Assembly: GCA_963845755.1 (NCBI GenBank)
Contig: CAWJTV010000036.1
Span: 192,001 to 256,000, forward strand
Length of the DNA: 64,000 bases
Origin: an uncultured Planctomycetota bacterium
GTDB taxonomy: Bacteria; Planctomycetota; Planctomycetia; Isosphaerales; Isosphaeraceae
Direction of reading: 5' to 3'
The notes beneath the pieces are model-generated. The model had not been told where the DNA came from, did not search any database, and saw only the letters and a list, made by a program, of their open reading frames with translations. Position numbers and translations under genes: made by a program. Shown here in pieces: positions 15,019-28,316 of this stretch (the first letter of the stretch is position 1; every line of letters starts with the position of its first letter).

Positions 15019-16410
15019 TCAGTGGCCGTGGCGCTCGAGGATCCGGCCGACGTGCCGGCGCAACTCGCCGCCCCGCTCGGGGTCGACCATGGCGACGAAG
15101 TTGGCGAACCCTTCGATGGCCGCCAGGATGTCGGGGCCGGCTCCCCATCGCTTGCCGGCCGGGCCGTCGCGCTCGATCTGAAAGAGCGTGGCGCGGAAAC
15201 GCCTCAGCGTCGCCCGCGCGACGTTTACGCGGCGGTTGACGACGAGGCCGGTGACCTCTTGCTGTCGTCCCTTCCGCAAGATGCGCGTCTTGTCGGGGTG
15301 GACGCGGAACCCTTCCTTCTCGATCACGAAGCGGACCCGGCGGAGCAACTTGCCGACGTCCTCGGCGGCCGGTCCCGAGCCCGAAAACGTCATGTCGTCG
15401 GCATAGCGCGTGTAGCGGAAGCCGAGCCCCTCGGCGATCCGGGTGAGTCGGGCGTCGAGACCCCGGCAGAGGATGTTCGTGATCGCCGGGCTCGAGGGTG
15501 CACCTTGCGGGAGGCGTCGTTCGCCCCGGGCGACCTGATAGACCTGGCCGTCCAGCTCCACGGCGCGCACCTCGGGCTCGGAGCAAATCAGCGACAGGAT
15601 CGTGGCAATCTGCTCGCCGTAGCCAAACGAGCGGAACATCCCCTTGATCCGGCGCCGGGTGACGGTCGGGAAGAACTGCTCCACGTCCAGGTTCACGACG
15701 ACCTCGGCGCCGATGTGCGGCGAGGCGTTGGTGACGATCGAGCGGCCCTTGCGGAACCCGTGGGCCGCGGGGTGGAGCTCGACCTTCTCCAGGATCTCGG
15801 TCAGCACCCATTCCTGCGCCCGCTTCAACCGGGTCATCGGGGCCGAGATCAACCGCAGGCCGCCGGTCTTCTTGGGGATCTGGAACCGCCGGTAGTGGCT
15901 GACGGTCGCGACCCGGCGCACGAAGCTCAGGAACCGCAGCTCGCCGACGGTAATCCCCATGGCGACGGCCAGGTTTTCGGCGTTGGCCAGCAAGGGGAGG
16001 CCGCGGGCGCGGAGCTTATCCAGGTCGGTCTCGATCGAGTTCAGCCCGGCGGAGACGCCCTCGCCGAGGTAGAGGATCTCGTGGCTCTTCCGCGCGCACC
16101 ACGCCTCGGCGCGCTCCTGCCGCTCGCGCAGCCGGCGGAGCTTGGTCTCTTTCTGGCGCTCGCGCGATTCCTGCATCCGCTTCTTGCGCAGCTCCTTCTT
16201 GAGCTTCTCCGTATCCTGGATGCGGGCCTGTTGCGCCATGAGGCCCTCGAGCTCCGTCCGCAACTGCTTGCGTCGTTCCAGCTCCTCGAGCGTATCCGCG
16301 GGAGGGCCCAGATCGCTCGGCCAGAAGCCCAGGCGGAGCATCTCCTCGAGGATCACTTCCTCCTTGGAGCTCTGCTGGATCCGGTCGTATAGCTCCTGGC
16401 GGGTGGCCAT
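15019..16410 (-). CDS. Retron-type reverse transcriptase with N-terminal charged coiled-coil extension (463 aa)
   Basis: IPKKTGGLRLISAP, AAHGFRKGRSIVTNASPH (retron region X NAxxH), LDVEQFFP, LPQGAPSSP, YTRYADD, QEVTGLVVN (retron region Y VTG); uninterrupted ORF. Confidence 0.95.
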   Translation of the reverse strand: MATRQELYDRIQQSSKEEVILEEMLRLGFWPSDLGPPADTLEELERRKQLRTELEGLMAQQARIQDTEKLKKELRKKRMQESRERQKETKLRRLRERQERAEAWCARKSHEILYLGEGVSAGLNSIETDLDKLRARGLPLLANAENLAVAMGITVGELRFLSFVRRVATVSHYRRFQIPKKTGGLRLISAPMTRLKRAQEWVLTEILEKVELHPAAHGFRKGRSIVTNASPHIGAEVVVNLDVEQFFPTVTRRRIKGMFRSFGYGEQIATILSLICSEPEVRAVELDGQVYQVARGERRLPQGAPSSPAITNILCRGLDARLTRIAEGLGFRYTRYADDMTFSGSGPAAEDVGKLLRRVRFVIEKEGFRVHPDKTRILRKGRQQEVTGLVVNRRVNVARATLRRFRATLFQIERDGPAGKRWGAGPDILAAIEGFANFVAMVDPERGGELRRHVGRILERHGH

Positions 16411-16457
16411 GAGTCACTGTGGGGTTAAGAGATTGCGATAGGTCAGATGCCCGGTTC

Positions 16458-16601
16458 CGAGGTCTTGAAATTGCGCTTGTCGGATAGGGACCGTAGCCGA
16501 GCGCGGCTCGGGTCGGTGCCGTTGACTCCATCCGCGGCCCAACGGGCCGCCGTGGCCTCCTTCGGACTCGCTTCGCACGAAACCCCGACTTCAAGACTTC
16601 G
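16458..16601 (-). other. Second structured element between msr/msd and the RT start
   Basis: 12-bp closing IR CGAGGTCTTGAA (16458-16469) / TTCAAGACTTCG (16590-16601), GTCGG/CCGAC inner stem, hairpins CCGAGC-GCG-GCTCGG and GCGGCCC-AAC-GGGCCGC. Confidence 0.5.
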
Positions 16602-16608
16602 AGATGAG

Positions 16609-16865
16609 GATTGTCGAGACGACCGGCGCACCGGTGGGGCTTCCCTTCGCGAGGCTCTCAGGACCGGGCCGCTCCACTCAAGCCGGCGCCACCACCCTGG
16701 GCGATACGCCCGCTCGGCGTGCCGGTCCGTGTATGCCTAGGGTGGTGGCAGCCGGCACAGTAATGAGCGGACCGGTGATGCATGACAGGTCAGTTGGCAT
16801 GGATGGCGATCCGCCATCCGGGTTGCAAGGCTCCCCCGCCGTACACGCCGGTCGTCTCGACGATC
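16609..16865 (-). ncRNA. Retron msr-msd non-coding RNA
   Basis: Perfect 16-bp arms GTCGAGACGACCGGCG (16613-16628) / CGCCGGTCGTCTCGAC (16846-16861), extendable to 20 bp with 1 mismatch; msr hairpin GGATGGCG/CGCCATCC (16801-16819); long msd hairpin 16663-16776; lies upstream of the RT. Confidence 0.85.
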
Positions 16866-16955
16866 ACCCCGATCTTAAGAGTGACGGGATGCCGATGCAA
16901 GGACCTCGTCGAAAATGTCGCCGTCCGGCCACGGCCGGGGAGCTGAGGAAGAGTC

Positions 16956-17091
16956 GATTCGAGATTCGAGATTCGAGATTCGAGACTCGGGATTCGACAT
17001 TCAAGGCTCGGGATTCAAAATTCGAAATGGAAAATACTTTCATATTTAATTAATATAAATATAATTTTCGGATTTTGAGCCTCGAATCTTG
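16956..17091. repeat. Heptamer tandem repeats (GATTCGA)n with AT-rich core and inverted TCGAATC-type units
   Basis: 10 units at 16956-17025, AT-rich 17027-17066, complementary-type units at 17067-17091 resuming at 17428. Confidence 0.8.
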
Positions 17092-17126
17092 GACACTCCT
17101 CGCTCAACACCGCCGCTGGTTGCCTC

Positions 17127-17383
17127 CTCGTTCCCACGCTCCGAGGCTGTGATTTTTTGGGGAAAAGCCCACTCATTGACCATAATCCATGTTTGTAACC
17201 CCTTGAAAATCAGGGGCTTGCTCCCATCAAACTTCGTGCATCTGACCTGTTTCACCCAAAAAATCACAGCCTCTCCGCGTGGGAATGCCGTCTGGGACGC
17301 TCCGCGTCCTCTTCCCGGACGGAGACCAACGACGCGACGCGGAGCGTCGAACCCGGCATGCCCACGCGGAGCGTGGGAACGAG
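17127..17383. repeat. Composite palindromic REP element inside MITE-A
   Basis: CTCGTTCCCACGCTCC|GCGTGGGAAT...GACGCTCCGCGTC...GACGCGGAGCGTC...CCCACGCGGAGCGTGGGAACGAG; half copy at about 8881-8904. Confidence 0.8.
17143..17273. mobile_element. MITE-B (131 bp) with 3-bp target-site duplication, inserted in the REP hairpin
   Basis: 19-bp perfect TIR GAGGCTGTGATTTTTTGGG / CCCAAAAAATCACAGCCTC; TCC duplicated at 17140-17142 and 17274-17276. Confidence 0.85.
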
Positions 17384-17457
17384 AGTGGGCCGCCTTCTTC
17401 CCGTGGTGGTGTTCGGCGAGGAGTGTCGAATCTTGAATTCGATTGGTTCGCGTTGGT

Positions 17458-19129
17458 TCAAGAGACTCCAGCCAGCGCCGGCGATGCCCGCAGCCGGCGA
17501 GCGTGGAGCAGTCGCAGCGCCAGGATGTGCTCACACGGGCCCATGCGGAGCCGGTTCTGCTGGTAGAAGTTGCAGGTGCACCGGGCGTCGACGACGCGTT
17601 CGTCATTGTCGATGCGGAGCCAGGGCTCTTTCGGCGTTTCGCCGTGACGGACCCGGCCCTGGAGGGAGACCCCCTGGCCATCGTCCTCGGACGCGAGCAA
17701 CACCACGGCTCTCTGGTCGAGGAACCGTGTGGCGTGCGCCTCACGCTCGTTCTGGAATCGGAGCCGGTCCATCGGCAGCGGCTCGCGGCTGAGCTCGCGG
17801 CGCCGGTAGCACCCGTTCTCCAAATCGTAGACTGCCCGGCCGGCCTGGGTGTAGGCGGCCAGGGCGCCGAGGACGACCGAACGGTCGAGGTCGAGCCGCG
17901 CGCGCCAGCTCGTCGGGCGTCGCCGACCAGGAGTCGCTCAGCGCCGCGAACACGCGGCGCTTGGTGTCGTCGTCCACCTCGGCGCGGGGGGCGAGGAGGT
18001 CGAAGTTGCCGGCCCCCGACCAGTCGTTGCGCGTCCAGCCGGAGAGCCCCAGCGTGTACGACATATCGCCGAGGTCGGCCAGGTAGAACGAGGGCATCCC
18101 CTTGCCCAGAAGGTGCACGGTGAATGATCGCGCGACCGGGACCAGCCGCTCCAGGGTATGGAGCCGCCGTCGCCCCCAGACCCGGACCTCGTCGGCGACG
18201 TCACCCTCGTAGACCGACCGGGGGCAGGTCACCTCGTAACCCCAGGGCTCGAACAGGACCCGGACGGGCCGGCCCGGCTCGAGGCAGTACCGCAAGGCTC
18301 GCGGGCCGACCAGCTCCTTGTGACGGCGGAGAACCAGGCAGATGTTGTGGATGTCCATCGGGTGCAGGCGGAACGTCAGCGCCGGCAGCGCCATCGCCGA
18401 GCTGACCTGGAGGAACCCGCGCACCCAACTGTCGGGCAGGTCGATCTTGACCTCCTTGTGCGCCGGATCGTCCGAGGACGTCGCGACCTCGAACCCGGTA
18501 GGATCGATCGCGAACGTCGTGGTCTTGTAGCTGCGGATTTTCTGGAACTCGTCGTAGAGGGCCTCGGAGTAGTCGATGTTGGTGGTGCCGCAGGCGAATT
18601 CGCCGACGTCTTGGAAGACGTTGTAGTTGACCGCCAGCCGGCCGTAGCTCGACTCGTCCTGGCTGAAGCACTCGAAGAAGACCTGGTCGGGGTGGACGGT
18701 GATCACCGGGTCGAGCACGATCCATGCCTGGTAATCATGCTTGAGCAGGTACTGGAAATACTGTTGCTTGGCGTCGAGGTAGGGCTTCTGCCGCTGGTAG
18801 CTCCGGTCGAAAAGCGTCTTGAACTCGGCGTTGATCTCCTTGATGCGCTGGGCGACCTCCTTCTTGTGCGCGGCGATCGCGGCGAGGTCCTCCGCATCCT
18901 GGGCGGCCCGCCAGCGGAGGTACTCGGTGCGGTCCTTCGGCTTCCAGCGTAGGTCGGAGACGACCACGTCGTGCAGGGCGCTAATCGCCTGGCGGAAGGC
19001 CAGCGGCTGGCGGAGGTTTCCCCGGAAGAAGGTCGGCTGGCGGAGCGTGTCGGGGGCGAACGACATCGCGGTTCGGTCCACGCGGTTGCTCACGGTCGAG
19101 TCGCCGTGGTAGGCATAGTCAAACTGCAT
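17458..19129 (-). CDS. SWIM zinc-finger protein, retron-associated (frameshift near 17890)
   Basis: ORF 17741..19129 (LDPVITVHPDQVFFECFSQDESSYG, KIDLPDSWVRGFLQV, LGLSGWTRNDW) plus ORF 17458..17823 with SWIM motif CTC...GPCEH. Confidence 0.85.
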
Positions 19130-22100
19130 GGCGCACCTCCACGGGCTGGATCCGGATCGGCAGCTCGATGTGGGGATAGGTCTCGTGGATGAACGTCAGC
19201 AGCTCGAGGACGCGGGCGCGGTCGGAGATGGCCGCCGTGGCCGAGAGCGGGGCCAGGACCGCGGCCACCGCCTCGGCCGCTTCGGGACCCGCGCGCGCCG
19301 CCCGCTCCAGGAAGGCGAAGGCGCGCTCCTTGGCCACGCGCCCCTTGTTCACGCGGGTGAGCACCGCCATGCAGAAGAACCGGAGCCGGCGCACGTGCGC
19401 CGGATCGTCGGCGGCAAACCGGTCCAGGAAATGGCCGGCGAACGCCTGCATGTCGGTGTCGGGATGTTCGCTCAGCTCCAGCGCGTAGCGCTCGCCGTGC
19501 TCCTCGCGGAACAGGCGGCCGATCATCTCCCGGCCGAACTGCTGCACCTCGGGCTTGACGCTGTCGCAGAGACCGATCAGGGCTTCGGGGGGCCACTCGG
19601 CACCGGCCAGGTGGTCGCGGAATAGCGCGAACGCCCATCGGCGCGAGTCCTCCCACTTGGCGTCGGCCAGACGGTACGCCGTGCGCAAGTCGGACGCCAG
19701 CCGGTCGGGATGCTCGCGGCCGATCTGCCAGACGGCCTCGCGCACCGAGAGGATATCGTGGCTGGCGAGCCGGACGAGATGGTCCAGGTCCAGCGTCTCC
19801 CAATCGACGTTGGTCGGCAGGAGCAGGCCGCCGATCTCCTGGGCGGGCTTCGAGCGCGATTCCAGCAGCCGTAGCACGGTCTCGGCCGGGACGCGGTCGA
19901 GCCAGGCCAGCAGGTCCTCGCGGAGCACGCGGACCGTGTGACTGGGCACGCCCTCTGAGGCGCCCGGCGCGAGCAGCGACTCGGCCAGCCGGCCGGCGAT
20001 CTGACGGCCGAACTCGCGGTCGCCCTCGGCCAGCCGCCGCACGGTCGCGCGGATGTTCTCGCGGAGGTCAGTCAGCGGGTGCCGGGTCAGCCAGAGCAGC
20101 ACTTCGAGGTTTTGCTTCAGCCGCTCGTCGTCGAACTGGTCGAGGATTCGCACGCCGACGCTCCGGACGACGTCATGGGGCGAGGCGAGCAGGGCGCGGA
20201 GGAGGTCGGGGGGCGGCTGCTGGGCGAAACGATCGTGCCCCAGCACGAGGTCGCCGGCCAGCCGCTGGACCATCGAGAGCGGGTGGGCTAGCAGGTCGCG
20301 GATGACCGGTTCGCCGATCCGGCGGAGGACCGGGCGGAAGACCAGGAGCATGGTCTCGGCGATGTCGGCGGCGCGAGGGTTCTCGTCCGGGCCCAGCGTG
20401 AGAAGCCGGGCGACCAGCCGGGCGACTAGCATCTCGGACTCGCCTTCGGGCACGGCCGTCTTGCGGAGCAATCCGCGTGCGAAGGCGCGGGTCTCGGGCT
20501 GCGGGCTGGCGACGAGGCCGGCGACCAGTCCGGCATCCCTCCGGAGGATCCCCCAGTGCGCGTTGGCCCACTCCTCGGCCGTTCGACGCGCGTCGGCCAG
20601 CGGGCTGTCGGCCAGGATCAGGACCAGCTCCGGGTCCGGATTGGCCGGATCGAACCGCTCGATCGCCAGATACAGACCCAGCCATGCGGTCGGCTCATAG
20701 AGGCTTGCCGCCAGCCGCTTGACCGTCGCGAGGTCCAGCCCTCGGCAGAACTCGGCATTGCGCGCAGGGCTCGGGCGGCGAACTCGTGGACCGGGGTGCA
20801 GCGGGATTCGAGCACCAGGCGCAACAGCGCCTCCGGGCGCGGTCCCACAGCTCGGGGAACGCCTCCTCGCGCTGCTCGGGCGGCGGCTGGCCCGGCTGGT
20901 ATTTCGCCTGGCAGACGAAGAAGCCACCCCGGGTCGTGGTGTAACGGGAACTGCTCGCGTAGAGGGTGCAATTGAATACATAATAAGGACCGAACCGGTC
21001 GATCGTGGCATTGCCGGTGCGACCTCCGTTATTCCGGCGCTGACGGCCAGCGAGGACGGGCAAGGCATCGCCATCGCTGTAGTGCCGCAGGACTTGCTCG
21101 GCCATCCGGACGTATTCCGGCCCGCCGAGTTCACCCCGGTCCAGGAGGATCCTCCAGGCATGGCGGCAGAAGTACTTGCGCGTCGGGCTGGTGAAAGCCC
21201 TCGTGACCAACGGATATCTGGTCATCCTCCTTTGGTCGATGAACTGGGAGATCTCGAGCCCCCAAGCGACGGACGGCCGGGTCGTCTCGAACCGGTGGGT
21301 CAGGAGGCCGAGCATCTCGGCGTCATCCCGCAGCTCGGCGACCTTGAACAGGTAGCGGACGATCCGGACGAGATTGGGGCCGAGCGGAGCCGACCGGAGG
21401 AATGCGAGCAGGACGGCGCAGCGATGCGCTCGTCATCGATCCAGTAAAGATCGGCGAGCACGCCGTAACCGTCCTCGACTTTCAGGTCCACCCGCTCGCG
21501 GAGCGTAGCCCGGAATTGTGGTTCTTTCTCCGCCCTGGCGATAAAGCGATTCATGAGCTGTTGGTGGTAAAAGTACGGCTGGACCAGGGAAGGTAGTATC
21601 TCCAGCGCCGCCACGACGGCCCGCTCGGCCGCCTCATCGACCCTGGCGCGGAGCCGGTCGCGGAACTCGCCGGCCTCGCCCTGCTTCACGGCGTCGGCCA
21701 GCGCGGGGGCAGACCATCGAGCACGTGTTTCGCGGTCTCGGCACGCTCCTGGGGGGTCATGAGGAGACGGATCGACTCCAACGCGATCCGGCGGGCCGGG
21801 GCGGGCGACGCGGGATCCATCGCGAACGCGCGGAGCCGGGGAATGCTCTCGGCCGTCCCGCAACGCCCGAGCGCCAGGCCGCGCAGTAGACCAGCATCGC
21901 CTTTTCTTCGGCCTTGTTGGGCTGCTGAGGACGTCCGTAATAACGCCTGCGGTGATAGCTCGCGGTCGGTTCGTCCTGATAGTTCGGGGTCGGTCCGGCC
22001 GATGGAACCGACGTCGAGGCCGAGAAGGTCCATGAAGAGGGGTCGATCTTCTCGGGGATATGCGGAGTCGGTTCGGGCGCTCGATCCGCCCGGAACGTCC

Positions 22101-22636
22101 AGGGCGACCAGGTCGGCATCCGGCCCGACACCGCCGGGGCAGGTGGCTCGGTCTTCGGCGGCTTCTTCTCGCCGCGCAGGTAGGCCCACAGCAACGGCTC
22201 GGCCGCGCGGATGCGCAGCTCGCCCGCCCGCCAGATCACGCGCGACAACTTCCAGTCGGTCGTGAACTTGGCCTCCACGCCGGCGCAACCGGACGAGGAT
22301 CGCCGCCTCGCGCTGGGCGGCCACGTCAACCGGTCCCGCCGGGGCCGGCGTTCCGGCTGGGGCCGCTGCCGCGGGCGGGGCCGGGGCCGGCGCGGCACCC
22401 GGCTCGTGGTAACCCTTGTCGACCTTCTCGGCCACGAGCTCGTCGTAGATCCGCTCGGCCTTGTCCCGGGCGACGGGCACGGCCGTCTTCGACCCGCTCT
22501 GGAGCTTCGCGCCCCGACGGCCGTATCGGAAATTGACGACGAACCGGTCGGGGCCGACCTCGCAAAGGTCGACCTCATAAACCTTGTCCGACTTGCCTTC
22601 ACGGAATTCCAGGGAGATGGTCTTGATGAGTCTCAA
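19119..22636 (-). CDS. WGR-domain plus HEAT/ARM-repeat protein, retron-associated (several frameshifts)
   Basis: TTG start 22636 with GGAGGG RBS; SDKVYEVDL...VVNFRYGRRG...LVAEKVDKGY (WGR-like); long helical-repeat C-terminus; stop overlaps the SWIM gene start. Confidence 0.8.
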
Positions 22637-26441: not shown

Positions 26442-27329
26442 TCAAGAGGGTCGGTAAAGACTCACCAGTTCCCGAAGGACCAAGATCACACGATCTAGAT
26501 CGAACGCTTGATAATCGATCACCCGCAACACCGGCCGAAGCTGGGCTTCCACCTGGTCTCGAAGGATCTGAATTCTCGCATCCGAGAGATCGGCCGATCG
26601 AGTTCCGCGCACTGAGAGCTTTGCCGCCACGAGATCAAGGACCGCACGGTCTCGATGATCGAAGTGGGCCCTTTGGACGGCGTGATCGATATCGAAGAAA
26701 TCCCGGATGGCCGGTTCCGGCCTGGTGAGCGCGGCCCGGACCTTCTCCGCATAGGCTTCCCGGATCGACACCGCCCGGACATTCACGGGAGGAAGCGCCG
26801 GCTGGGCCGAGTAAGGGTCGCGCAGCAAAGTCCGTGCGGGCAGGGTCTCGGTCGGCAAGAGATGTTCTTCCCGGAGCGAGACCTCGACCTTGATGAACTG
26901 CGCTCGCCCGTTACGACCGATTGGTAGGCCAGTTGCCCGTTATACTGCCGCGAGCTATTGTGGCCCACGAGCGGCTCGGCCAGTTCGAACGAAGCCAGAC
27001 GGTCGGTGACTCCGGTGAGATGGTCCCGGAACGGCAAGGCGGCCTGGCGACGCTGGGATGGTGTCAAGTCCGACAGCACCGAGATGGAGAAATCCAGGTC
27101 TTCGCTCAGGCGGAAGAATTCCGCGTGAACCTTGCTCAAGCAGGTGCCCCCTTTGAACACTAGGCCTTGTTCGAACGGTCCCCGGAGGTCTTGGAGGAGC
27201 AGGGAGCAATAGTAATCCTTCTCGATGAGCCGTGCGCTGAAGTCGCTTTCATCCTCGCGTGAACGACAACGCATCGCGAAACCGCGAACGATCGTCGTGA
27301 TACCAGGGACCTTCCGGCTCGCTACCCAT
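26442..27329 (-). CDS. AbiEii/AbiGii-family nucleotidyltransferase toxin (frameshifted)
   Basis: LIEKDYY, LVFKGGTCLSKVH..FFRLSEDLDF, EKVRAALTR...AIRDFFD. Confidence 0.88.
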
Positions 27330-28117
27330 CGTTGACGACCACTCCCCATCGCGGGTTGACTTGCCTCGTTTCTCTCGGTTCGGAATCCATGGGATGAAAC
27401 TTGAGGACGGGCGAACTTCCCGCTCCAGCCGGCGGAGCAACGCCTCCGGAACAGTTTCTCGCTCGAGGAGTTCCCCGATCCGTCGCACGGTCCCCTGGTT
27501 TCCGAATTGAACCGTCACCGGATGAGTTCCGCGGCGAACGCGTCGTCTTTTTTTACCTCTCGACGGATCCAGTCGAACGCTCTGGGAAGACCATCGAACC
27601 GCGACCAATCGTAGACCGCGTTCGACCAGCGCCCGAGCTTTCGATGCGTAGACGACATCGATCCTTTCCGGAACCCGTACGATCTCGATGCCGCCCAACC
27701 GCTCGTCGGCGATCTCGATGAACGTCAGTGAGACAGCCCCGATCTGTCGATCGCCGGAGATCCGGTTGTTGTAGACGTAGAGACGGTTCGGGACCTGGTC
27801 GGTCCAGCCATAGCGGTGGAAGACATTCGGCCCCGAGATCTGATAACGACCGCCGCGATCGCTCATCAAGGTGGAAAGGACCAGGAACTCCCCTGGACTC
27901 CAGCGCCGCCTGGAGGCAGGAGTGGAGGTACGAGGTACAGCCCCGGCCGGACCCGAGCAATCAGCCCCTTCCGCTCCAGCCGGCTCAGGACTTTCCGCTC
28001 TTGCACGGCGTTCCAACCCAGGGCGGACACAAATTCTCCCGCCGTAACCGCTTGGCGTTTCCGCCCTTGGGCGTAGGCGAGGAGCTGCGTTTCCAGGGGT
28101 CCGAGCGACATAGCCAT
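27322..28117 (-). CDS. AbiEi-family type IV antitoxin (frameshifted)
   Basis: wHTH-like LSRLERKGLIARVRPGLYLV, YQISGPNVFHRYGWTDQVP, C-terminal RWGVVVN; overlaps toxin start. Confidence 0.8.
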
Positions 28118-28316
28118 GGTATTCTATTTCTCGTATATCCCTTGAAAGGGGATTTAGGCGAAACATCAGTGCAAAGAGACATATCGTAAACCAATCTACA
28201 ACCTCTTGGCAATAGGGAACTTGTCTTGTGGGAGACAGATTTGTTGTGGCGTACTTACAACGATTGCCCTATCTCTTTGTCGTTGTATAATGAATACAAT
28301 GAAGGGAGTGAATCCG

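Follow-up and report, generated by a model that had tools for sequence, protein, structure and literature searches.

A type XIII retron in an uncultured Isosphaeraceae bacterium and a predicted clamp fold in its SWIM partner

The stretch of 64,000 nucleotides analysed here (the window; contig CAWJTV010000036.1 of assembly GCA_963845755.1, from an uncultured planctomycete of the Isosphaeraceae) carries a retron locus of four parts, all on the minus strand: a WGR-HEAT gene, a SWIM gene, an msr-msd non-coding RNA (ncRNA) and a reverse transcriptase (RT). Its sequence features make it almost certainly a type XIII (Mx162-like) retron. It is an ordinary member of this type, of a kind already catalogued and one of hundreds of copies. 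Structural modelling predicts a two- or three-domain sliding-clamp fold for the core of the SWIM partner. The parts are as follows.

19119 to 22636, minus strand: WGR-HEAT/ARM scaffold gene (cluster 216 of Mestre et al.; PADLOC WGR_XIII), with six frameshifts
17458 to 19129, minus strand: SWIM effector gene (cluster 114; PADLOC SWIM_XIII), with one frameshift near 17898
16609 to 16865, minus strand: msr-msd ncRNA, placed by fold, covariation and relatives
16846 to 16865 and 16609 to 16628, minus strand: a1/a2 arms of the ncRNA
16801 to 16819, minus strand: msr hairpin
about 16663 to 16776, minus strand: msd hairpin
15019 to 16410, minus strand: retron RT of type XIII / clade 10 with a charged N-terminal coil, an intact single open reading frame (ORF) of 463 amino acids (aa)

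The original prediction, made from the letters of the DNA alone, had described four co-oriented minus-strand components, and all four were located. The RT displays the motifs NASPH (aa 228), LPQG (300), YADD (336) and VTG (386), and 41% of its residues 1-125 are charged, as that prediction had it for NASPH, YADD, VTG and the N-terminal coil. Placement within the retrons is borne out by PADLOC, where RT_XIII gives the RT 608 bits and the next model 330, a profile-based assignment to clade 10. Pieces of the SWIM gene match SWIM_XIII (E 9e-183 and 2e-33), those of the WGR-HEAT gene match WGR_XIII (E 6e-161, 6e-47 and weaker), and Pfam recognises WGR (E 2e-5) and SWIM (E 3.5e-6) domains in the partner genes. 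The locus thus combines an RT bearing NAxxH, YADD and VTG with an ncRNA that has a1/a2 arms, hairpins and a conserved G; the RT is of clade 10, a WGR/HEAT-ARM gene precedes the SWIM gene, and the cluster-114 protein is linked. According to Mestre et al. 2020 (PMC7736814), these parts define type XIII, with Mx162, Mx65, Sa163 and Ne144 as members, so the predicted class agrees with both the profiles and the published definition.

Compared with the members Retron-Mxa1/Mx162, Mxa2/Mx65, Sau1/Sa163 and Nex2/Ne144, the RT class is common to all, and the descriptions in PMC7736814 show the same order of a cluster-216 WGR-HEAT gene followed by a cluster-114 winged-helix SWIM gene with a DEDE motif, beside a structured msr-msd. 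No type-defining difference was seen; the partners are frameshifted in the window assembly. The RTs of most type XIII relatives carry a C-terminal tail of 40-150 aa, whereas the window RT lacks one and ends directly after the thumb region (15019-15100 compared with L081:9983-11554), as does that of its closest relative, L008. A published survey lists 143 type XIII candidates, 26 of them from Planctomycetota (PMC13712802), and the closest relatives of the window RT are mostly Planctomycetota records.

Linkage of the parts extends across relatives. Both partners lie within 10 kb of the RT in 64 of 80 related loci, and 13 more loci are cut by contig ends. Matches to the SWIM protein occur in 59 of 121 genomes of the host's order (19 of the 47 near-complete ones). 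For these genomes, SWIM fragments were merged into 95 loci, and RT rows scoring 388 bits or more were kept together with seven split pieces, weaker RT rows being excluded as members of other families. An RT follows downstream within 50 kb in 70 of 79 strong SWIM loci and in 3 of 16 weak ones, and eight RT rows have no SWIM match; the SWIM homologues are therefore usually linked to RTs, which the original prediction had made a test of its reading. The linked pair is present in 49 genomes, 21 of which have two or three linked copies. The order is different in L069-L072, L074, L076, L078, L080 and L083, where the partners are downstream of the RT.

The SWIM gene overlaps the upstream WGR-HEAT gene by 11 bp (TGA at 19121-19119, ATG at 19129), confirming a predicted stop/start overlap. 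Its product contains a DEDE motif, a winged helix and a CxCx12CxH SWIM finger. The clamp assignment rests on a single predicted model, that of homologue P0001, which is 70% identical to the window protein over aa 1-408; it shows a PCNA-type clamp fold with a coiled-coil insert, followed by the winged helix and the SWIM finger. This predicted fold is common to PCNA, the 9-1-1 clamp, the beta clamp and herpesviral processivity factors, at identities of 6-14%, and to it the SWIM protein adds extra strands at the N-terminus, a coil insert of 77 aa, the winged helix and the SWIM finger. Against the beta clamp, the matched range of the model begins at aa 8-10 in several rows, and the protein's own strands may occupy the ring interface. 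The match to eukaryotic ZSWIM8 (PDB 9rwz) is limited to the SWIM-bearing module and implies no function. In the literature searched, no description of a clamp fold in the SWIM partner was found. Some family members are fused to further domains (BRCT, WGR or TPR in P0165, P0183 and P0122); a C-terminal WGR tail suspected by eye on SWIM proteins of the short-insert subclade was not confirmed by Pfam.

The length of the SWIM coil insert varies with the N-terminus of the RT. Within the subclade of the window locus, SWIM inserts are 84-86 residues long and the distance from RT start to motif is mostly 171-184; a second subclade has an insert of 52 and a distance of 144-151; a third (L154-L157) lacks the insert, and its RT N-terminus has no charged coil. 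The pattern suits a coil-to-coil tether in which the RT N-terminal coil would bind the SWIM insert.

A related SWIM protein also occurs without a retron. Of 13 weak, unlinked SWIM loci, 10 were fetched, and each of these is followed immediately downstream by a related long ORF, which is DUF6493-DUF7824-DUF7825 in the four scanned. The same pair of a short SWIM protein and DUF6493 is annotated in all four plasmid records examined (of six short matches), from three phyla. These SWIM proteins are homologous to type XIII SWIM (SWIM_XIII E 1e-56 to 1e-58), and their partner is likewise helical, about 1000 aa long and coupled to the SWIM gene, but it lies downstream. Unlike type XIII SWIM, they have no coil insert. 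The loci gave no RT match and no ncRNA-profile match, and no homology between the WGR-HEAT and DUF6493 partners was detectable (hhalign 1.7%). Searches found no publication naming DUF6493, DUF7824 or DUF7825, and no published description of the RT-free pair. Type I-A retrons with PtuAB, alongside retron-free Septu, are likewise a two-gene effector known with and without a retron; the proteins are unrelated, and for PtuAB/Septu the mechanism is described as solved.

The ncRNA at 16609-16865 folds better than its shuffled versions (z -7.5; none of 200 shuffles as good), and the region is 85% identical to the stretch upstream of the L008 RT. In an alignment of 55 copies chosen from profile matches, both sides change at 38 of 45 pairs; 91.8% of cells pair, compared with 66.0% in shuffles and 33-42% after sliding the alignment. 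With an iterated profile, 75 of 80 loci show a copy, sometimes partial, next to the RT, a count that is partly by construction because the profile was built from the same loci. The TTGC after the closing stem is invariant among aligned copies, and its invariance and position suggest G 16826 as the branch point. Rfam returned nothing relevant for the region. The predicted msr/msd is thus upheld as a folded, covarying element, but it does not adjoin the SWIM gene, about 590 bp with repeat elements lying between. In the middle of the msd stem, base pairing is preserved although the sequence is free to vary, as would be expected of a structural decoy. Six of the 80 loci (L009, L039, L040, L049, L077 and L081) carry two tandem ncRNA copies upstream of the RT, with identities of 91-96% in msr, 93-100% at the msd base and 88-100% at its tip, and just 61-83% in the mid-stem. 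No published case of natural tandem retron ncRNA copies was found in the literature searched; variable ncRNA arrays have been described for UG27 RTs. Between ncRNA and RT lies a hairpin-rich spacer of 147 nt (16463-16611), which is absent from one soil contig and much shorter in L008.

We favour, at roughly even confidence, a system in which a DNA-binding effector is tethered to the RT and gated by multicopy single-stranded DNA (msDNA). Starting at the branch G, the RT would reverse-transcribe the msd hairpin into msDNA, a step established for the family (PMC7736814), clade 10 being among the highest RT-DNA producers (PMC10849725). The RT-msDNA would then bind the SWIM protein, probably through the RT N-terminal coil and the coil insert of clamp domain 1. 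The SWIM protein, most likely a non-ring unit resembling a processivity factor, may grip DNA by arginine-rich clamp helices of the predicted fold, the winged helix and the zinc finger, and the WGR-HEAT protein would serve as a coupled scaffold whose WGR domain reads DNA ends or hairpins. By analogy with other retrons, the effector could be held on intact msDNA until the hairpin comes under attack by a phage protein that processes DNA; the effector would then be released or switched to replicating DNA and arrest the cell; a defence role for type XIII is likewise argued by analogy. An msDNA-gated complex that binds nucleic acids was, in general terms, already part of the original prediction and fits the data, although the predicted clamp core with its conserved acidic residues had been missed. 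A broader proposal is more tentative: the Mx162 family may gate a clamp-fold effector (an enzyme or a replication poison) taken from a widespread retron-free SWIM + DUF6493 system and tethered by a new coil, with tandem, diversified msd decoys at some loci.

Several observations weigh against the tethered, msDNA-gated effector. The clamp fold is one model of one homologue; sequence searches with the SWIM protein gave no clamp signal, hhalign against the beta clamp reached a probability of 1%, and the atlas was blank. Clamp families are very divergent among themselves, so missing sequence similarity to PCNA or DnaN says little. The coil covariation comes from four related subclades, which are non-independent events, and the fourth (insert 92) adds little since its RT start cannot be fixed; moreover, the RT is reported to co-evolve more strongly with the ARM protein than it does with SWIM (PMC7736814). 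The RTs of L008, L010 and L041 have neither partner within 10 kb despite full flanks, and some RTs lie far from their partners, which stand 31.8 kb (G032:C61) and 21.8 kb (G098:C1) upstream; those two cases weaken L008 as an example of partner loss. The SWIM family occurs in just 15 of 72,556 plasmid records, and the SWIM protein had no match among phage records. Type XIII is described as vertically inherited (PMC7736814); all three features set it apart from most mobile defence retrons. Finally, the neighbourhood forms no dense defence island, with an AbiE pair about 4 kb off and, at about 13 kb, a fragment of HsdR.

An enzymatic SWIM protein, probably a nuclease with an acidic active site on clamp domain 1 and gated by the retron, is an unlikely alternative. 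The claim that the partners show no recognisable toxic enzyme motif overlooks the published DEDE motif, which is present in the window SWIM protein and whose spacing fits aa 140-225. A comparison of 15 rows, 9 of them from RT-free proteins of about 24% identity, shows no change at D140, E153, S156, Y162, T183, N184, D186, R199 and E225, and in a clamp topology D140, E153 and D186 would come to lie on adjacent strands. The clamp subunits Rad1/Rec1 are reported to have exonuclease activity. Conversely, no nuclease fold appears among the structural matches listed, and true clamps keep an invariant Asp in a like hairpin (D42, D166), so the conserved residues may be structural. Mestre et al. 2020 (PMC7736814) suggested that the protein derives from a DDE/IS256-Mutator transposase and carries the DEDE motif. 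In the model, the region of this motif forms clamp domain 1 at high confidence, and the clamp model, as a prediction, contradicts a transposase-derived nuclease, for which an RNase H-like fold is expected.

The vertical inheritance of the family and its scarcity on mobile elements keep in play, at slightly lower probability, a domesticated housekeeping module acting in DNA repair, replication stress or developmental signalling instead of against phages. Domestication was suggested for type XIII by its describers (PMC7736814), the set of WGR, clamp, SWIM and occasional BRCT domains recalls repair proteins, and more than one linked copy occurs in 21 of the 49 genomes that have such a pair. Its patchy occurrence within the order argues against such a role, as does the abortive-infection function of characterised retrons (PMC12548924, PMC13405049).

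The 'complete operon' originally predicted has all its parts, but its partners are broken by seven frameshifts as assembled. Called against the intact relative L113 (80% nucleotide identity), six fall in the WGR-HEAT gene (near 22284, 21873, 21706, 21420, 20833 and 20759), whose homologues are about 1100 aa long when intact, and the seventh in the SWIM gene. All seven are breaks of 1-2 nt, several of them in homopolymer or dinucleotide runs. The ratio of nonsynonymous to synonymous substitution rates (dN/dS) is 0.23 and 0.16 for the partner pieces, similar to the 0.22 of the RT. The breaks very probably arose in assembly and the copy is probably intact in the organism, because rpoB, rpoC and dnaN elsewhere in the genome and dnaB on the same contig are split too, the partner pieces hold no nonsense codons and their dN/dS is low. 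Frame changes affect 10 of 20 sampled genes of the genome, the SWIM gene itself among them. Set against this, the partners show 7 breaks in 5.2 kb, about 3 times the sampled 0.43 per kb, which is a lower bound. Indels at 17899, 20759 and 21420 appear in soil contigs (depth below 5, mostly from relatives); these contigs are short, of low depth and none spans the locus, so they lend the frameshift question weak support. Decay of the window copy, with the partners as recent pseudogenes and only RT and ncRNA surviving, is doubtful: the unbroken RT, a transposable element between SWIM gene and ncRNA, and L008 without nearby partners speak for it, whereas the short breaks in simple runs, the absence of nonsense codons, the equally broken essential genes and the soil-contig indels speak against it. 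Being frameshifted, the window copy is a poor one to clone.

Three elements that are not retron parts lie in the gap between SWIM gene and ncRNA, where a REP-like hairpin (our own label) holds a miniature inverted-repeat transposable element (MITE) beside a heptamer repeat.

17127 to 17383, no strand assigned: REP-like palindromic element, whose 17-mer occurs exactly 26 times in the genome
17143 to 17273, no strand assigned: MITE of 131 bp with terminal inverted repeats, inside the REP-like element, with a 3-bp duplication
16942 to 17038, no strand assigned: degenerate 7-bp tandem repeat, common genome-wide

The MITE has three full copies, each within a REP-like hairpin (in the window and at G000:C13:16683 and 62949). 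Ends matching it flank a DDE transposase gene (DDE_Tnp_1, DUF772) at G000:C7:59345-61016, which is likely its mobiliser, a REP-targeting insertion sequence. The gap looks like an insertion hotspot because the partners in G032:C61 and G098:C1 lie so far upstream. Scans for sigma-70 promoters and terminators at the locus did no better than chance. The AbiE genes mentioned above, a frameshifted AbiEi/AbiEii type IV toxin-antitoxin pair, occupy 26442-28166, upstream of the operon. The source genome holds three type XIII systems, on contigs C36, C11 and C3; the extra two (G000:C11:191279-194555 and G000:C3:99731-103167) belong to other subclades and are also frameshifted, and the profile of the window ncRNA does not find their ncRNAs.

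Up to a 2025 account, retron defence had been studied just in E. coli, B. subtilis and S. enterica (PMC12548924), and a 2026 preprint describes a mechanism as lacking for most retron types (PMC13405049). In line with the original prediction, the literature searched yielded no demonstrated mechanism for type XIII, nor any test of phage protection or toxicity. Type XIII includes the first retron to be found, the Myxococcus msDNA of 1984. Given the predicted clamp fold, its named conserved residues and a candidate RT tether, a forty-year-old question would come down to a short list of mutants, and a bacterial PCNA-like protein acting as an immune effector or enzyme scaffold would, if true, be new. 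The function of type XIII becomes testable through the predicted clamp fold, the coil covariation and the sister pair that lacks an RT.

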